Below are positions 25,148-48,225 of a DNA stretch of 64,000 bases, in pieces. The notes beneath the pieces are model-generated. The model did not search any database and was not told the DNA's origin. It was given only the letters and a program-made list of their open reading frames with translations. The position numbers and the translations under genes were made by a program. The stretch comes from Eubacteriales bacterium. Its GTDB lineage: Bacteria > Bacillota > Clostridia > Lachnospirales > Lachnospiraceae. Each line of letters begins with the position of its first letter. Positions within the stretch are counted from its first letter, which is position 1. Where the stretch lies: NCBI GenBank assembly GCA_044425815.1, contig JAWXVA010000003.1:17429-81428 (forward strand), written 5' to 3'.

Positions 25148-26494
25148 CTACACTTGCGATTCTTCCCCTAATAAAGAATTTAGTTTTTTATGCATACATA
25201 ATAAGATAATACACAGAAATATCATTGCCAAGAAAATTCCTGCAAACACTGTAAATGCCTTTAGTTCGTTTACAAAGATTTGTATATAAGGACTGAGTTT
25301 ATTTGCAAAAAACGAAGAGGACGCTATCACGCCCATAAGAAGTGATAGATATTGTTTTGGTGCATATTTGCTTACCATAGCATGACGTAACGGTGAAAAA
25401 CACATTTCACCTATTGTCAATAGACTAATAAATATAAGTGGCCAAAGAACACTTACTTGAGCCGAACTACCTCCATCTGTGATACGCAAGTACTCACATA
25501 ATGCCATTACTCCAAACGCGATTCCTAGAAACGCGAAACTGTAACTGATTTTACTAAATATCGTGACATCTCCTTGTGGTCGCATTGCTAGTCGTTTCCA
25601 TATTTTAGCCATTACTCCCCCAAGTATGATACATAACAACCCATTCCAAGATGTCGTAACCCACGAAGTAGGTATGACAAATCCACATACATTCATATTC
25701 ACAAACTCGCTCATATATATCACAAGCGACAAGTCTTGCTGAAAATAAAACAACCAAAATATCACGGATAGAAAAGCTACTATTACTATAGATATAATAT
25801 GCTGTCTCTCTATTTTTGTAAGCATTCCTCGTTCTGCACTCAAATATTTATTCGGCTGCATCCCTTGTCCTTGCAGTTTTTCCCAGTGAATTACAAACCA
25901 AATAGCCGCTACCACACAATAACAAGCTGCTACTAGAAAGCATTGCCTGAATCCTAGGATTTCTTCCTGCGCAAAAACATGTAAATACAAGTACCCTGTC
26001 ACTAGAGATCCTACAAATGTCCCTATATTTATATAGGAATATTGTATCGAAAATGCAGCATCTAATTGACTTTGTTCCTTATATTGACATCCGATTAATG
26101 TATTAATATTTCCTTTGAAGAGACCTGTACCTATAGAAACGAGCAATATCATGAGATTAATTCCTGCGATGTCTGCTGCTAACCACCCCATGCCATATCC
26201 AACTGCCATTAATAAAATACCAGCTGTCACTGCATATCTTGCCCCTAACCATCGATCAGAGATAACTCCTCCTATCATCGGTGCTATAGCAGTGTATGCA
26301 ATAAGATTCGCAGTAAGGATTGTAGCTTCTGTTGTGTCAATCCCTAAGCCGCCTTGTGCAACTGAGGTTATGAGAAATAATAATAAAATAGGTTTGATTC
26401 CATAATAGGCTAATCGTTCGAGCATCACTGTAATACAACAAACATGAAAACCAACTGGATGCGTAGTATTCGTGCGTCTAGGTAATAACTTCAT
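25148..26494 (-). CDS. Proton-dependent oligopeptide (POT/PTR2) MFS transporter
   Basis: ERLAYYG, GGVISDRWLG, GTGLFKGN, AAFSIQY..INIG, TIGEMCFSP; overlaps the cobD end by 17 bp. Confidence 0.9.
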   Translation of the reverse strand: MKLLPRRTNTTHPVGFHVCCITVMLERLAYYGIKPILLLFLITSVAQGGLGIDTTEATILTANLIAYTAIAPMIGGVISDRWLGARYAVTAGILLMAVGYGMGWLAADIAGINLMILLVSIGTGLFKGNINTLIGCQYKEQSQLDAAFSIQYSYINIGTFVGSLVTGYLYLHVFAQEEILGFRQCFLVAACYCVVAAIWFVIHWEKLQGQGMQPNKYLSAERGMLTKIERQHIISIVIVAFLSVIFWLFYFQQDLSLVIYMSEFVNMNVCGFVIPTSWVTTSWNGLLCIILGGVMAKIWKRLAMRPQGDVTIFSKISYSFAFLGIAFGVMALCEYLRITDGGSSAQVSVLWPLIFISLLTIGEMCFSPLRHAMVSKYAPKQYLSLLMGVIASSSFFANKLSPYIQIFVNELKAFTVFAGIFLAMIFLCIILLCMHKKLNSLLGEESQV

Positions 26495-27542
26495 GTGGTT
26501 CCTCCTGTCTAATTTCCTGTAATGCCATAATTAGTTTTTTATTTTCGTGGTGAAGTTTTATCGCAACTCGATAGTAGCTATCGTCTAATCCATTGTAATC
26601 ATTACACACGCGAATCATTATCCCATATTTCATCAATGATTCAGCTAAGTGCGCATGATATCGAAACAGTACATAATTTACATCACTTTCATAAACCCTA
26701 ACTCCTAGATTCTGCAAGGATTCTATCATGTAAACTCTTTCTTTCTTTATTTCCGCCAAGCTTTCTTCCAAATATATGTTTTCTTGACAGCATGCAATTC
26801 CTGCTATTTGAGCGATAGACGATACAGTCCAAGGTTGGCCTGATTGTTTGATGTTTTCAAGCACGCTCTTGTTCGACGTTATACAATATCCTAAACGAAT
26901 CCCTGCCATAGCAAATACTTTTGTAAAGGCTTTTAAGATAATGAGATGCTGAAATGTTTTTACCTCTTGTAACAACGAATATTCAAAATTTTTTTCTACA
27001 AAATCCATGAAACATTCATCTACCACTAAATAGGTTCTATGCTTTTCACAAGCTTCCATGATTTTTTTCATCAATGCATACTCACACATTTTCCCCGTAG
27101 GATTGTTCGGATTGCATATATATATTATGTTATTTTCTGGAATAGCTTCTATTATTTCTTCTGTAAGCGTGAACTGGTTTCTTTCTTCTAATAAAAAATA
27201 ACTTACTTCTGTCCCTACACTTCTTAGAGAAGCCTCATATTCGGAAAAAGTCGGTGCAAGAATCAATGCTTTTTTCGGTTTTAATGCATAGGCAATTCTA
27301 TAAATAATATCTGCTGCACCGTTACCAAATAACAGATAGTCTTCGGAAATTCCAAGGTAGTGAGCTACCACTTCTGTAAGCGCTCTGCAATTTGGATCTG
27401 GATACCGATTCAAGTAATCAATGTTTTCTAACATTGCATTTTTGACACCTACTGGCAATCCGTACGGATTTGTATTTTCCGAAAAATCAAGAGGCGTCTT
27501 TCCTGTCGCCCTTTGAAATGTATAAATGTCTCCACCGTGCAT
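26478..27542 (-). CDS. cobD: L-threonine-O-3-phosphate decarboxylase
   Basis: MHGGDIY, DFSENTNPYG, YPDP, GNGAAD, CNPNNPTG, DECFMDF, AFTK..AMAGIRLGY. Confidence 0.93.
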   Translation of the reverse strand: MHGGDIYTFQRATGKTPLDFSENTNPYGLPVGVKNAMLENIDYLNRYPDPNCRALTEVVAHYLGISEDYLLFGNGAADIIYRIAYALKPKKALILAPTFSEYEASLRSVGTEVSYFLLEERNQFTLTEEIIEAIPENNIIYICNPNNPTGKMCEYALMKKIMEACEKHRTYLVVDECFMDFVEKNFEYSLLQEVKTFQHLIILKAFTKVFAMAGIRLGYCITSNKSVLENIKQSGQPWTVSSIAQIAGIACCQENIYLEESLAEIKKERVYMIESLQNLGVRVYESDVNYVLFRYHAHLAESLMKYGIMIRVCNDYNGLDDSYYRVAIKLHHENKKLIMALQEIRQEEPHEVIT

Positions 27543-27569: not shown

Positions 27570-28511
27570 TTAAAATATGATAATTAATATGATCGTAATG
27601 ACCAATATTTCTGCTGATGTAAAATACATCAATTTAATCGCATGTTTAATATCTTCTGCTTCAATCTGGCGGATATCGTTCCCAATTGTTGGTTTCTGAT
27701 ACAATTCCCCAAAGTACATTGCATCGCCTGCCAACTGGACATTTAGTGCTCCTGCACACACAGATTCTGTCTGCGCTGCATTGGGACTTTTATGATTTTT
27801 CCTATCTCGCTTATATATTGTAAACGCACCTTTCCCATTGTAATTCAGGATATGCGCCGCTATTATCATAAATATCGCTGTAATTCTAGCTGGAATATAG
27901 TTTGCTATATCGTCTACTTTCGCTGCGCATCTTCCAAACAAGATATATGTTTTATTTTTGTATCCTACCATGGAATCCATTGTATTAATCGCCTTATACA
28001 TAAAGGCTAGAGGTGCGCCTCCTAGCGCCATAAATAATAATGGTGCTATCACTCCATCTGTTGTGTTTTCTGCAACCGTTTCCACTGTCGCTTTTATAAT
28101 CCCTTGTTTCTCTAAGTTCTCTGTATCTCGCCCTACGATGTAAGAAAGGTATTTTCGTGATTCTTCCATGTTATCTTCGTTTAATGGTTTATACACTTGA
28201 AGCGCTGCCTCTTTTAATGATTTTGCCGCAAAGATCTGGTAACACCATAGAATTTCTACTACAACACCTAAATAATAATTCCATCTATAACAATAAAACA
28301 AAGTAAAGTATGGAACGCTAAATGAAAGTGATATCATAATGACAACTAATAAAAATCCTCCTACTAATTCATTCTTTATTACTCGCCGCAGAACATTTTC
28401 TAATTTATGTATTACAGTTCCAATAAGACAAATCGGATGATACATCCACCTTGGATCCCCAAATAGCATATCTAGTACAAATGCAATTCCTATTATCATT
28501 GCAATCTTCAT
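27570..28511 (-). CDS. cbiB: Adenosylcobinamide-phosphate synthase
   Basis: GDP...HP, YIVGRDT, TVAEN..DGVIAP, YKAINTMDSMVGY, SPNA...E...AGAL. Confidence 0.96.
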   Translation of the reverse strand: MKIAMIIGIAFVLDMLFGDPRWMYHPICLIGTVIHKLENVLRRVIKNELVGGFLLVVIMISLSFSVPYFTLFYCYRWNYYLGVVVEILWCYQIFAAKSLKEAALQVYKPLNEDNMEESRKYLSYIVGRDTENLEKQGIIKATVETVAENTTDGVIAPLLFMALGGAPLAFMYKAINTMDSMVGYKNKTYILFGRCAAKVDDIANYIPARITAIFMIIAAHILNYNGKGAFTIYKRDRKNHKSPNAAQTESVCAGALNVQLAGDAMYFGELYQKPTIGNDIRQIEAEDIKHAIKLMYFTSAEILVITIILIIIF

Positions 28512-29071
28512 TCACTTCGCCCCCGTATCAACAACATGTCATCTTCCATATGATATTCGCATTCATACACGCCACCATTTGGTATCTGATAATCGTAAAA
28601 ACTTCTATGCTGTACCTCTAATTTCTCCATAATAGCCATGATTGTTCCACCATGGCAGACAATTACAATCTCATCTTCTGGTTTACATTCTGCAGTAATC
28701 TCATGAAATACGCGAAGGCATCTCTCTTTGAAACTAGTTCGGCTTTCTCCACCTATGGGGTTTTCTATTCCTTGTATGAAATCTTGATAATTCTTATTAT
28801 CTTTTAATTCTTCATAGGTGTGATTTTCAAACTCTCCAAAATTCATTTCCTTTAACCATTCTTTGGTACATACTTTTCTTTCTGGATATAAGAAATGAGC
28901 AGTCTGGATACAGCGCTTCATTGGACTTGCATATATCTTATCTGGATATTCTGGTAATTTGTAATTTATTTGCTCATCTCCATTGAACGCTATCGATTCA
29001 TCCGTGCAACCAATATATCTTTTCTCATAATTTCCTTTTGTTTTTAGATGTCTTACAAAATACAATTTCAT
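28508..29071 (-). CDS. cobC: Histidine phosphatase, alpha-ribazole-phosphate phosphatase-like
   Basis: FVRH..T..N, SPMKRC.QTA, EMNFGEFE, VCHGGTI; cob context. Confidence 0.8.
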   Translation of the reverse strand: MKLYFVRHLKTKGNYEKRYIGCTDESIAFNGDEQINYKLPEYPDKIYASPMKRCIQTAHFLYPERKVCTKEWLKEMNFGEFENHTYEELKDNKNYQDFIQGIENPIGGESRTSFKERCLRVFHEITAECKPEDEIVIVCHGGTIMAIMEKLEVQHRSFYDYQIPNGGVYECEYHMEDDMLLIRGRSE

Positions 29072-29433
29072 TTGATTTTCACCGCAATCCCTGATTCCAT
29101 TTTATATACTTCTTCTGCATGACTCGCTATCATACATGCAATGCGCCCTGCCAGTTCTCTCCAACGGACTTCCGTTTTCTCTATAGGTATAATTCCACAC
29201 CCTATTTCTCGCGATACTACAACTACATTTTGCTTCCACATCGTTTCTGTCGTTGCAGTATTACAAATCTGGCGAACTTCTTGTTCTATCTGTAGTAGTA
29301 TATCAGATTCTGTATCCAGTCCTTGCGTTATCCAATTTTGGATATTCATCTCTAAATCATCCAGAATTGGATAACAAAAGCTTTCTGCAAACGCTGTCTT
29401 TCCTTGTGCCATCCCCCCTGTTATAAATATCAT
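29068..29433 (-). CDS. Short CobU-like protein (P-loop plus C-terminal motif, no guanylylated-His segment)
   Basis: ITGGMAQGKT; VSREIGCGIIP....RWRELAG; SGIAVKIK. Overlaps cobS and cobC by 4 bp each. Confidence 0.8.
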   Translation of the reverse strand: MIFITGGMAQGKTAFAESFCYPILDDLEMNIQNWITQGLDTESDILLQIEQEVRQICNTATTETMWKQNVVVVSREIGCGIIPIEKTEVRWRELAGRIACMIASHAEEVYKMESGIAVKIK

Positions 29434-30206
29434 AGCAACACACCTCCTATCGCCATACTAAACGGCAGTAATAGCTCTAATAACGATATAATACATCCCG
29501 TGAGATCGCCTGTGATTCCACCAAATTTTTTCACGTACAGTGGCAAGATCCCCAAAAGAAATACGGCTATCGTTGCAACAAATATCATGAATATATTCCT
29601 GTCTGTTGCACATAAGATTACCCCACTGGCTACTATCCACATGCCCAATATTCCAACTACTATATTCTGCGCAGCAGTATTCGAAAATTCTGCTCCTAAT
29701 CCATCTTTTTTTGCATTGGGCATTTTTATCATACAGATAGCACCCACAGCACGACTTATGATAAAGATTATGGGTAAGACTATCACTTGTAATGTTTTTG
29801 TTTCTATCAGTTGTACATAGATTCCATACAAACACACAAAATATACAATTGCACCAAGCACCCCAAAAGCACCTGTTCTCGGATCTTTTAGAATTTCCAA
29901 TTTCTTTTCTCTATCACCATAGGAAAAATACGCATCGCAAGTATCAATCACCCCATCAATATGGATACCGCCTGATAGAATTACAGGTATTAGTAGTAAT
30001 GCTATCGCCTGAAAAGTAACTGTAAAACTTGTGAGTAAAGGATAGACTCCTATCATACAACTTCCGATAATCCCACCAATCACCGGTAAAAAACACAACA
30101 TATATTTCATGCTTTTTTCTTCCCATTCAATCCGAGGCATCGGGATAATGGAATACATAGAGATACATATAATCAAACTATTACACATTTGTTTTAATTT
30201 CCCCAT
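29430..30206 (-). CDS. cobS: Adenosylcobinamide-GDP ribazoletransferase
   Basis: SGGIHIDG.IDTCDA, LEILKDPRTGAFG, FGGITGD..G. Confidence 0.94.
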   Translation of the reverse strand: MGKLKQMCNSLIICISMYSIIPMPRIEWEEKSMKYMLCFLPVIGGIIGSCMIGVYPLLTSFTVTFQAIALLLIPVILSGGIHIDGVIDTCDAYFSYGDREKKLEILKDPRTGAFGVLGAIVYFVCLYGIYVQLIETKTLQVIVLPIIFIISRAVGAICMIKMPNAKKDGLGAEFSNTAAQNIVVGILGMWIVASGVILCATDRNIFMIFVATIAVFLLGILPLYVKKFGGITGDLTGCIISLLELLLPFSMAIGGVLL

Positions 30207-30735
30207 TTAGTTTCTCCTGCCCTTTGTGAATCACTGGAATTCCACAAACAATTTCTATTACTACATCTGCATCTTGAGATAATCTCCTGTTGATTTCTCC
30301 CAGGTCTTTAATATACCCTTTTGTTTCATCCGCATATTCTACACCATCGTCAAATATCTTATTGCTCACAAGAATTAGATGCTCACTGCGACTTTTTAAT
30401 GTTTCGATTCCGCGCAATATCGATTCTACGTAGTTACCCTTGTTCTTCTCTTCTGCGAATCGTTCATTTGCAAGAAGCGTGGACATACATTCTAATAAAA
30501 TTGTATGATACCCCTCTTCTTTTATTTCTTTTAGGTTTCGATACCGCTCTAGCGTATGAAATCCTTTATTCTTGCGAAGCGCATGATGTCTCTCTATTCG
30601 ATATTTCGCCTCTTCTCCGAAGGGTTCCATTGTGGCTATATATAGCTTGGGTGCTTCTTGCGCAAGTCGTACACTCAAATTTTCTGCATATTCTGATTTT
30701 CCTGAAGCGGATCCCCCTATAATGAACACAACCAT
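30181..30735 (-). CDS. cobU: Adenosylcobinamide kinase/guanylyltransferase
   Basis: GGSASGKS, YIATM, RIERHH, LLECMSTLLAN; C-terminal EVGxGIVP motif degenerate. Confidence 0.88.
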   Translation of the reverse strand: MVVFIIGGSASGKSEYAENLSVRLAQEAPKLYIATMEPFGEEAKYRIERHHALRKNKGFHTLERYRNLKEIKEEGYHTILLECMSTLLANERFAEEKNKGNYVESILRGIETLKSRSEHLILVSNKIFDDGVEYADETKGYIKDLGEINRRLSQDADVVIEIVCGIPVIHKGQEKLNGEIKTNV

Positions 30736-30749
30736 ATTTTTATTCTCCT

Positions 30750-31796
30750 TTAATCGAAGGGCTCGTATGCATCGATTTCTATTTCTTGAAAATTACACAT
30801 TTCATTATAAATCAAGCTTGCTGTTTCCAATATATTAAACGCCATTACTGCACCTGTCCCTTCTCCTAGACACATATGCAAACTTAGCATCGGCTCTAAT
30901 CCTAGCGCATCCAACAACATTTCACCAGCTGGTTCCGCCGATACATGCGTTGGAATCATGAATGCTTTTGTACGAACATCTATAGTCTGTGCAACCAAAG
31001 CGGCTGTTGCCGAAATAAATCCATCGATTAAAATCGGAACTCGATAGATTGCACCTCCTATGAACATTCCACACATTCCCGCAATGTCTAACCCACCTAT
31101 TTTAGCAAGAATATCGATTCCATCTTCTCGATTGGGGTTATGCTTCGCTAATGCTTCTTGAATAAGTTGGGTTTTTCTCAATAATCCGCTAGCACTAAGT
31201 CCTGCACCTTTTCCTGTCACAATCCCTGGATCTTGATTCAGAATACACGAAGCAATTGCGCTACTCGTGGTTGTATTCCCAATCCCCATTTCTCCTGTAG
31301 CTATTACATCATATCCAAGTAATTTCAACTGCCTTACCATGTCGATACCTACTTGGATTGCTGCTTCCACTTGTTCTATAGTCATCGCACATTCTTTCGC
31401 GAAATTCTTTGTACCATACATCACTTTTTTGTTAACAATATCTGCATTTTCAGAATCAGATGCCATACCAATATCTATTACAATGAGATCTGCTCCACAA
31501 TGTTTGCTCATAAGTGCTACAGTGGCCTTATCCGTTGTCATATTTTCTGCTACGATTTTCGTTACCTCTTGTCCTACTTGTGTAACGCCTTCTTCTACTA
31601 TCCCATTGTCTGCGCACATAACTACTACTGCTTTTTTCTGGATTCGAACTTTATCTGTTTCAAAAATCCCAGCACATTGAACGATGACATCTTCTAGCTT
31701 CCCTAAGCTATTTAATGGGGTTGCAATTCCATCCCAATTACGCTTTGCTTGATGCATTGCTTCTAAATTCAATTCTTTTATTTGATATTTATTCAT
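30750..31796 (-). CDS. cobT: Nicotinate-nucleotide:lower-base phosphoribosyltransferase
   Basis: P..SLGKLE, ADNG...EGV, GEMGIGNTT.SSA, GG.DIAGM.G, DGFIS, LGEGTGA. Confidence 0.96.
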   Translation of the reverse strand: MNKYQIKELNLEAMHQAKRNWDGIATPLNSLGKLEDVIVQCAGIFETDKVRIQKKAVVVMCADNGIVEEGVTQVGQEVTKIVAENMTTDKATVALMSKHCGADLIVIDIGMASDSENADIVNKKVMYGTKNFAKECAMTIEQVEAAIQVGIDMVRQLKLLGYDVIATGEMGIGNTTTSSAIASCILNQDPGIVTGKGAGLSASGLLRKTQLIQEALAKHNPNREDGIDILAKIGGLDIAGMCGMFIGGAIYRVPILIDGFISATAALVAQTIDVRTKAFMIPTHVSAEPAGEMLLDALGLEPMLSLHMCLGEGTGAVMAFNILETASLIYNEMCNFQEIEIDAYEPFD

Positions 31797-47974: not shown

Positions 47975-48165
47975 TCTTCCCTCACCGTCCGATTGCGATA
48001 TACATTTATCATAGGCAGGTTTCCTGACTTGGCTTCTAACCTACTCTATGCACCTTCCCGATTTCATCAGTGGTAACGCATATTTCGTAGCCCTTACAGT
48101 AGAGTGAGCTGTTCTGGATTTTGACCAGATTCCCTAATACTAAAAGTAACCTATACATGTATTCT
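47975..48165 (-). promoter_or_regulatory. Cobalamin (AdoCbl) riboswitch
   Basis: Minus strand: AGGTT...AGGGAA-TCTGGTCAAAATCCAGA-ACAG..ACTGTAA...CCACTG..GGGAAGG...AAGTCAGGAAACCTGCC (B12 box), directly upstream of cbiM. Confidence 0.93.
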
Positions 48166-48225
48166 AAACAATTATTAATACAATAACACACCGTAACTAA
48201 ATTCGTCAAGTTAGTGGTTTTCAAT

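Follow-up and report, generated by a model that had tools for sequence, protein, structure and literature searches.

We examined two genes of the CobU family that lie on either side of cobS in a 64,000-nucleotide (nt) stretch of DNA from a Eubacteriales bacterium of the family Lachnospiraceae (GenBank assembly GCA_044425815.1, contig JAWXVA010000003.1, positions 17,429 to 81,428; hereafter the window, in which all coordinates are given). CobU is the textbook enzyme of B12 nucleotide-loop assembly, and its canonical form is a homotrimer of a single chain of about 180 amino acids (aa) that bears all of the motifs. In the window, the motifs are divided between a 184-aa protein encoded at 30181..30735 on the minus strand, which we call CobU-L, and a 121-aa protein encoded at 29068..29433 on the same strand, which we call CobU-S; the genome contains no CobU homologues besides these two. 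From sequence comparisons and predicted structures, we consider the chances somewhat better than even (a probability of about 0.55) that CobU-L and CobU-S make up a two-subunit CobU and jointly produce adenosylcobinamide-GDP (AdoCbi-GDP) for CobS. The pair is a new variant of CobU, an already known enzyme.

The two open reading frames (ORFs), and all of the motifs that an earlier note on this DNA had assigned to them, were confirmed in the sequence. CobU-L contains the Walker A sequence GGSASGKS, RIERHH, LLECMS and LVSNKIFDDGVEY, and it is covered by the Pfam CobU profile (PF02283) at positions 1-166 of 168 (110.4 bits), a full-length match to the family. Its His50, within the His50/His51 loop RIERHH, aligns with the histidine of the Akkermansia CobU structure 9VIO (His49) that is alanine in 9VIT, an entry titled 'CobU H49A'; in Salmonella CobU, the guanylylation site is His46 (reference cited in PMC8749415). 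The experimentally known catalytic elements, namely the P-loop and the equivalent of His46, are all retained by CobU-L, and the RI.RH motif is kept across about 107 long orthologues. By our own interpretation, the LLEC motif (LLECMS in the window) would be Walker-B-like. At its C-terminal end, CobU-L has SNKIFDDGVEY..TKGYIKDLGEIN, with the pattern ..T..Y, in place of the canonical NE[VI]GxG[IV]VP..RxFRD..GR. It was wrong to describe this segment as degenerate, as had been done previously; it is a conserved variant common to about 107 orthologues, and not a product of decay.

CobU-S contains the P-loop GGMAQGKT, followed by SREIGCGIIP, RWRELAGR and SGIAVKIK. The Pfam profile covers it only at positions 82-168 (60.7 bits, against a gathering score of 27), which amounts to partial membership of the family; roughly profile positions 20-80 are missing, and the segment that carries the guanylylated-His loop is therefore absent. 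The last 54 residues of CobU-S align with NEVGMGIVP..RHFRDIAGR..SGIGVKIK of Salmonella CobU (1C9K), so that the earlier placement of the Salmonella motif opposite this C-terminus was upheld. Against NF004469 (PRK05800), the NCBIfam equivalog model for the bifunctional enzyme, CobU-L scored 89.9 bits and CobU-S 56.1 bits, both far under the cut-off of 161 bits. Neither copy alone should be filed as an equivalog of bifunctional CobU. At least 3 of the short genes are named as the full bifunctional enzyme in NCBI records.

The division of motifs seen in the window recurs widely. Long-type CobUs (n about 107) and canonical CobUs of the same class (n=26) share the elements GGSxSGKS, YxATM, RI.RH(R) and LLEC(M)SN. 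After the fourth strand, the long type has [TS]N[EQNDK][VI][FG][SEC]DGxxY...T..Y...LG.IN and the canonical type has TNE[VIL]GxG[ILV]VP....R.FRD..GR.NQ; this canonical C-terminal module was found, in exact or close form, in 20 of 20 newly fetched canonical CobUs of the class. Short-type proteins (n about 112) have GG[AY]xQGK, then a short middle region and, after the fourth strand, [DN]E[IVL]GxG[VI]VP...[ED]R.[YW]R[ED]..GR...CGI...IK. The suggestion that what the two copies have kept of the canonical enzyme is complementary thus holds over more than 100 lineages. In a tree of the C-terminal module, the long copies formed one clade (99 by the Shimodaira-Hasegawa-like approximate likelihood ratio test, SH-aLRT) and the short copies another (SH-aLRT 90.8), a topology that, on these sequences, is consistent with a single duplication. 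A model specific for the short proteins scored 31-66 bits against the C-terminal part of canonical CobUs; among the paired long copies, only two passed its threshold (at about 35-36 bits), and the others gave no match. On this basis, we regard the short copy as the keeper of the ancestral C-terminal module.

Protein searches, both word-indexed and exhaustive, returned 1491 matches at E <= 1e-3, of which the best 150 were mostly of the short form; proteins with the short architecture are 100-150 aa long, and their ORFs are intact down to about 30% identity. Across 34 diverse members, residues G6, G7, G11, K12, G80, P83, R92, G96 and V109 (window numbering) were invariant. In the subclade of the window, the first arginine of the helix following the loop is replaced (E88-V89-R90-W91-R92), and only R92 is invariant. 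Among 218 distinct short sequences, the P-loop lysine was kept in 206, the glutamine preceding GK in 181 and the glutamate of (D/N)E(I/V)G in 207; the Ser/Thr of Walker A was present in only 90. The window copy has GKT. Where long and canonical copies have LLEC or LLDC, the short copies have unrelated residues. In comparison with its closest relative (79% identity; dS about 0.6), the short gene gave a ratio of nonsynonymous to synonymous substitution rates (dN/dS) of 0.17-0.21; among its neighbours, the long copy gave 0.08-0.10, cobS 0.14 and cobT 0.09. The short gene is under purifying selection. AlphaFold2 (AF2) predicted the short protein to be a four-stranded mini alpha/beta domain, with a mean predicted local distance difference test (pLDDT) score of 88.9 and a predicted template modelling (pTM) score of 0.82, and the 24 best Foldseek matches of this model in the Protein Data Bank (PDB) were all CobU structures.

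We followed the co-occurrence of the two genes in samples of 200 genomes from the class and 121 genomes from the family of the window in the GTDB taxonomy (Lachnospiraceae), using a model built specifically for the short family (A2). In the class sample, Pfam CobU scores were bimodal, with canonical proteins at 167-215 bits and divergent long proteins at 82-138 bits; genomes with canonical CobU carried that type only, and two of them had two canonical copies each. All 15 genomes that have a divergent long CobU gave a short-gene match of at least 89 bits, one of them as a fusion, and none of the 46 canonical-CobU genomes did (Fisher p = 1.4e-14). These matches extended over nearly the whole length of the model in 12 of the 15; the window copy and that of one other genome (G289) aligned over the C-terminal two-thirds only. 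In the family sample, the short gene was found at E <= 1e-20 in 63 of the 121 genomes, with weaker matches in 4 more, and at least 63 of the 76 CobU-bearing genomes carry the pair; most CobU-bearing genomes of this sample gave a full-length CobU match and a second, C-terminal-only match that is located across cobS or directly adjacent. In both samples, the short gene was always accompanied by a long-type CobU and never by a canonical one.

A scan by motif, with each species represented by one genome, identified 325 loci, and hence at least 325 species representatives with an intact short ORF. Carriers include Hungatella hathewayi DSM 13479, Clostridium symbiosum ATCC 14940, Oribacterium and many Ruminococcus, among them R. 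flavefaciens, as well as Oscillospiraceae, Peptostreptococcaceae, Eubacteriaceae, and metagenome-assembled genomes (MAGs) of Treponemataceae and Spirochaetaceae. A long copy was present upstream, within the 3-kb flank, in 70 of 80 fetched loci, and the long gene, cobS and the short gene occurred together in 103 of the loci fetched; there are also genomes in which the short gene comes straight after the long gene and not after cobS.

Several individual loci can be noted here. The short gene is not beside the long gene in H. hathewayi DSM 13479 (L081), H. effluvii (L062) and three further genomes (G096, G047 and G040), where there was no long copy within 3 kb, or where the two genes were on separate contigs or far apart on the chromosome. 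Both genes are present in five loci from Treponemataceae and Spirochaetaceae MAGs (L069, L090, L108, L122 and L125), which suggests horizontal transfer of the nucleotide-loop module, and also in a locus labelled Prevotella sp. CAG:279 (L113), a bin that may be mislabelled. One MAG, GCA_044425825.1, has two differing cobT-cobU(L)-cobS-cobU(S)-cobC clusters on separate contigs (L001 and L152), whose short copies are 53% and 79% identical to that of the window; either the bin is mixed or this organism has two operons. An 86-aa frame in genome G126 (L042:5595-5852), which lies about 2 kb from a canonical 164-aa CobU and repeats the C-terminal segment of that protein nearly exactly (LLASISSKEIIVTNEVGFGLIPADKTARLYTE), seems to be a pseudogene or partial duplicate rather than one of the short proteins.

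The long and short modules are frequently found in one chain. In more than 80 of the 120 best-listed clusters at 90% identity, some of which have hundreds to thousands of members, a long module, a linker and a short module together form a protein of 314-429 aa, and the two halves repeat the complementary motif pattern of the separate genes; KGMB01110_18140 of Mediterraneibacter butyricigenes is one natural fusion. The AF2 model of one such fusion, from the family of the window, had a pLDDT of 90.5 and a pTM of 0.88, with low confidence at the linker only. Its N-terminal module superposed on solved CobU chains with template modelling (TM) scores of 0.75-0.81, and the next fold neighbours after CobU were RecA, RadA and KaiC. 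A pTM of 0.88 for a chain of two modules implies that their predicted packing is defined and confident, and the fusions suggest a 1:1 ratio of modules in an assembly unlike the C3 trimer. Rarer than these are fusions of the short CobU with a CobC-type histidine phosphatase (P0102, P0143, L120:2956-4092 and the short ORF of L035). Apparent CobS-short fusions, in frames of 260-370 aa from loci of high GC content (L057, L058, L060, L083, L087 and L130), were rejected, since they look like out-of-frame read-through over cobS, with an upstream portion of Arg/Gly/Pro-rich junk.

If the two proteins do form one enzyme, its origin and action could be pictured as follows. An ancestral cobU would have been duplicated once within Clostridia, as the phyletic pattern and the tree suggest, and the copies would then have diverged complementarily. 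CobU-L would have kept the full fold, the GGSxSGKS Walker A, the RI.RH loop with the guanylylated His and LLEC, and would have exchanged the ancestral NE[VI]GxG[IV]VP..RxFRD..GR after the fourth strand for N[EK][IV]F[SD]DGxxY..T..Y..LG.IN. CobU-S would have dropped a stretch of approximately 60 residues inside the chain, the His loop among them, and would have retained, besides the first strand and the P-loop lysine, precisely the ancestral segment that is missing from CobU-L. The products would assemble as one hetero-oligomeric CobU, probably at 1:1, in which CobU-L would be responsible for the chemistry, that is, GTP binding and the His-GMP intermediate, and CobU-S would contribute its conserved loop and arginine helix to substrate binding or to completion of the active site. 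The complex would turn adenosylcobinamide phosphate (AdoCbi-P), and possibly adenosylcobinamide (AdoCbi), into AdoCbi-GDP for CobS, whose gene separates the other two.

A more specific version of this scheme is offered only tentatively, and we would sooner expect it to need revision than to stand: CobU may be a catalytic/non-catalytic heteromer in which CobU-S inserts its GxGVVP loop and arginine helix in trans into the P-loop/His site of CobU-L, in a manner resembling F1-ATPase, whose beta site is completed by an alpha subunit that is itself non-catalytic. The analogy with the RecA-like P-loop pairs of the F1/V1-ATPases (beta/alpha), for which we claim no homology, would be that a homo-oligomeric P-loop protein was duplicated and one paralogue is catalytic, and that the other has a P-loop, relaxed catalytic positions and an element that may complete the site of its partner. 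The two cases differ in that CobU-S has lost a large internal segment and not point residues only.

Several observations weigh against a joint enzyme. In six genomes of the family with a long-type CobU (G005, G032, G044, G050, G091 and G120), there was no short gene in the locus, and a search of the remaining genome with model A2 gave no match at E <= 1e-3. Loss of the short partner is therefore possible, and some lineages can dispense with it. Nor did a mirror-tree comparison favour the pair, since the correlation between long and short copies (r = 0.60) was lower than that between long copies and cobS (r = 0.77), and with cobS as background the partial correlations were 0.26 for long-short and 0.64 for long-cobS, so that no co-evolution was detected beyond the background of the operon. 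The numbers of chains in PDB entries of canonical CobU are multiples of three, and a 1:1 heteromer, which cannot rebuild the trimer ring, requires us to assume a quaternary structure of a new kind. Finally, the fusions could in part mirror plain gene adjacency. An obligate hetero-oligomer had been suggested in the earlier note; the hetero-oligomer is plausible, given the many fusions and the one pTM of 0.88, and it is the word "obligate" that the six long-only relatives weaken. In the loci of these six (L154-L159), cobS directly follows the long-type CobU and is followed in turn by cobC or cbiB. Their CobUs, which have diverged further, are a third type in the family; the P-loops are altered (to IGTPDSGKS or GPNNSGKS, for example), and most of these proteins also diverge at the C-terminal end (for example, EGEWISYENN).

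The window pair belongs to a cob operon on the minus strand, at the head of which is a cobalamin riboswitch (47997..48169; Rfam RF00174, 82 bits against a gathering score of 31.5). Directly upstream of the long cobU is cobT, for the nicotinate mononucleotide (NaMN):base phosphoribosyltransferase (30750..31796; Pfam DBI_PRT, 399 bits; NCBIfam TIGR03160, 371 bits, over its cut-off). Between the two cobU genes is cobS, for the membrane protein cobamide 5'-phosphate synthase (29430..30206; Pfam CobS, 159.5 bits). If its first ATG is taken as the start, cobS shares 26 nt (30181-30206) with the 3' end of the long cobU, and 14 nt in L001; the real start may be further downstream. The short cobU has a GGAGG Shine-Dalgarno sequence a few bases 5' of its ATG and, as had been noted before, truly overlaps both neighbours by 4 bp, with ATGA on each side: cobS upstream and, downstream, a cobC-type gene for an alpha-ribazole/cobamide phosphate phosphatase (28508..29071; Pfam His_Phos_1, 107 bits; best NCBIfam match TIGR03162, 106.7 bits, under its cut-off). 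The order cobT-cobU(L)-cobS-cobU(S)-cobC is preserved among relatives. The operon continues with a 313-aa ORF for cbiB, the AdoCbi-P synthase (27570..28511; PF03186, CobD_Cbib, at the orthologous position in L001 and L003), whose product is the substrate for the guanylyltransferase step of CobU, and with a 354-aa ORF of the cobD type with an aminotransferase fold (26478..27542; PF00155 at the orthologous position in L001 and L003), which from its operon context is the probable L-threonine-phosphate decarboxylase. The final gene, at 25148-26494 on the minus strand, encodes a POT/PTR2-type transporter of the major facilitator superfamily (MFS); L001 has the same transporter gene after cobD, with matches to PF07690 and PF00854.

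We considered other accounts of the pair. That the two proteins are separate enzymes, with CobU-L the AdoCbi-P guanylyltransferase of de novo synthesis and CobU-S a minimal nucleoside triphosphate (NTP):AdoCbi kinase that serves cobinamide salvage only, and is hence losable, we regard as unlikely but worth serious attention. Such a dispensable role would fit the six relatives whose cobT-cobU-cobS-cobC/cbiB operons are intact without a short gene. The His for guanylyl transfer is retained in CobU-L, the P-loop lysine is kept in most CobU-S sequences and is part of a full GKT in the window copy, and CobU-S keeps an acidic residue, the loop after the fourth strand and the arginine helix at the place where other P-loop kinases have their lid, to judge by Foldseek neighbours such as the shikimate and thymidylate kinases. 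However, the Walker A Ser/Thr, which normally binds Mg2+, is found in fewer than half of the short sequences, and the LLEC/LLDC motif is not conserved in them, so that a general Mg-NTP kinase is an unpromising role for CobU-S. Joint action is indicated instead by the many long-short fusions and by the confident AF2 packing, and a self-sufficient kinase would not be expected to be confined, as the short gene was in both genome samples, to genomes with a long-type CobU. The clean split into a kinase and a guanylyltransferase that the earlier note had envisaged as one possibility is unsupported. CobU-L has kept both the P-loop and the His46 equivalent, and the idea that the short copy could be the guanylyltransferase is ruled out because the segment with the nucleophilic His is absent from that protein.

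We think it rather improbable that CobU-S is instead a non-catalytic adaptor derived from CobU, which would bind AdoCbi-GDP or cobamide phosphate and dock on the membrane protein CobS and the phosphatase CobC. The setting of the short gene is suggestive in this respect, since in the window its neighbours are cobS and cobC, with ATGA coupling on either side, the order cobS-short-cobC is found in close relatives, long, cobS and short genes are together in the 103 loci mentioned above, and short CobU-CobC fusions occur. For Salmonella and E. coli, the Escalante-Semerena laboratory has also put forward a multienzyme complex that is anchored to the membrane at CobS and includes CobU and CobC (PMC8749415). 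The weak conservation of the Walker A Ser/Thr would suit binding more than catalysis. Yet the long-short fusions far outnumber those of the short module with CobC, and in some genomes the short gene comes directly after the long gene and not after cobS. An adaptor for CobS and CobC also leaves unexplained the perfect link of the short gene to a remodelled long copy and its absence from canonical-CobU genomes, where CobS and CobC would presumably be expected as well. As for the short gene being a functionless, decaying remnant of a duplicated cobU, the internal deletion does take out the catalytic His, and the dN/dS of the short gene is somewhat above the 0.08-0.14 of its neighbours. We nevertheless reject this explanation as extremely improbable, on the grounds of conservation and of a dN/dS far under 1: the ORF is intact in many protein clusters and in no fewer than 325 species representatives, its motif residues are invariant, the predicted fold is confident, and the gene is translationally coupled to both neighbours. 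The earlier view that the short gene is not decaying is borne out by these results.

A two-subunit CobU, which we continue to prefer, would have to be placed among the characterized enzymes of this step. Both window proteins are Pfam homologues of CobU/CobP (EC 2.7.1.156 / 2.7.7.62; Salmonella 1CBU/1C9K, Akkermansia 9VIO, Methylocapsa 8YEP); both the short model and the long module of the fusion have CobU structures as their best fold matches; the genes are in the usual operon position, beside cobT, cobS and cobC; and CobU-L keeps the P-loop and the His that matches the residue mutated in 9VIT. The differences from CobU/CobP are that the motif set of one canonical chain is divided here between proteins of 184 and 121 aa, that the equivalog scores of both are far below the cut-off, and that the 1:1 ratio in the fusions is incompatible with a simple C3 trimer. 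CobY, the archaeal-type, non-homologous NTP:AdoCbi-P nucleotidyltransferase, carries out the same pathway step as a guanylyltransferase only, with no kinase activity (PMC7242693), and its existence means that the two activities of CobU are separable in nature. CobY is unrelated to CobU in sequence and in fold, and the window proteins belong to the CobU family and do not resemble CobY. In the freely accessible literature that we searched, neither a short CobU paralogue nor a two-gene or heteromeric CobU was found to be described.

We know of no experimentally assigned role for the conserved C-terminal motif of CobU. Its location on a separate polypeptide in these bacteria lets each subunit be mutated independently, and the motif be dissected. 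If CobU-S does act on CobU-L in trans, the C-terminal module may act in trans in the classical homotrimer as well; the pair would then be, to our knowledge, the first catalytic/non-catalytic pair of paralogues in cobamide biosynthesis, and a new quaternary structure would replace the C3 trimer. The family also provides a clean and datable case of duplication and complementary divergence, followed in some lineages by re-fusion or loss of a partner, and by apparent transfer to Treponemataceae. The pair is the norm in Lachnospiraceae and is common also in Ruminococcus and Oscillospiraceae, which are major groups of the gut and rumen. Predictions of B12 production or cobinamide salvage that count "cobU" treat both genes alike, and may for these organisms misjudge the capacity for the kinase reaction or for salvage.

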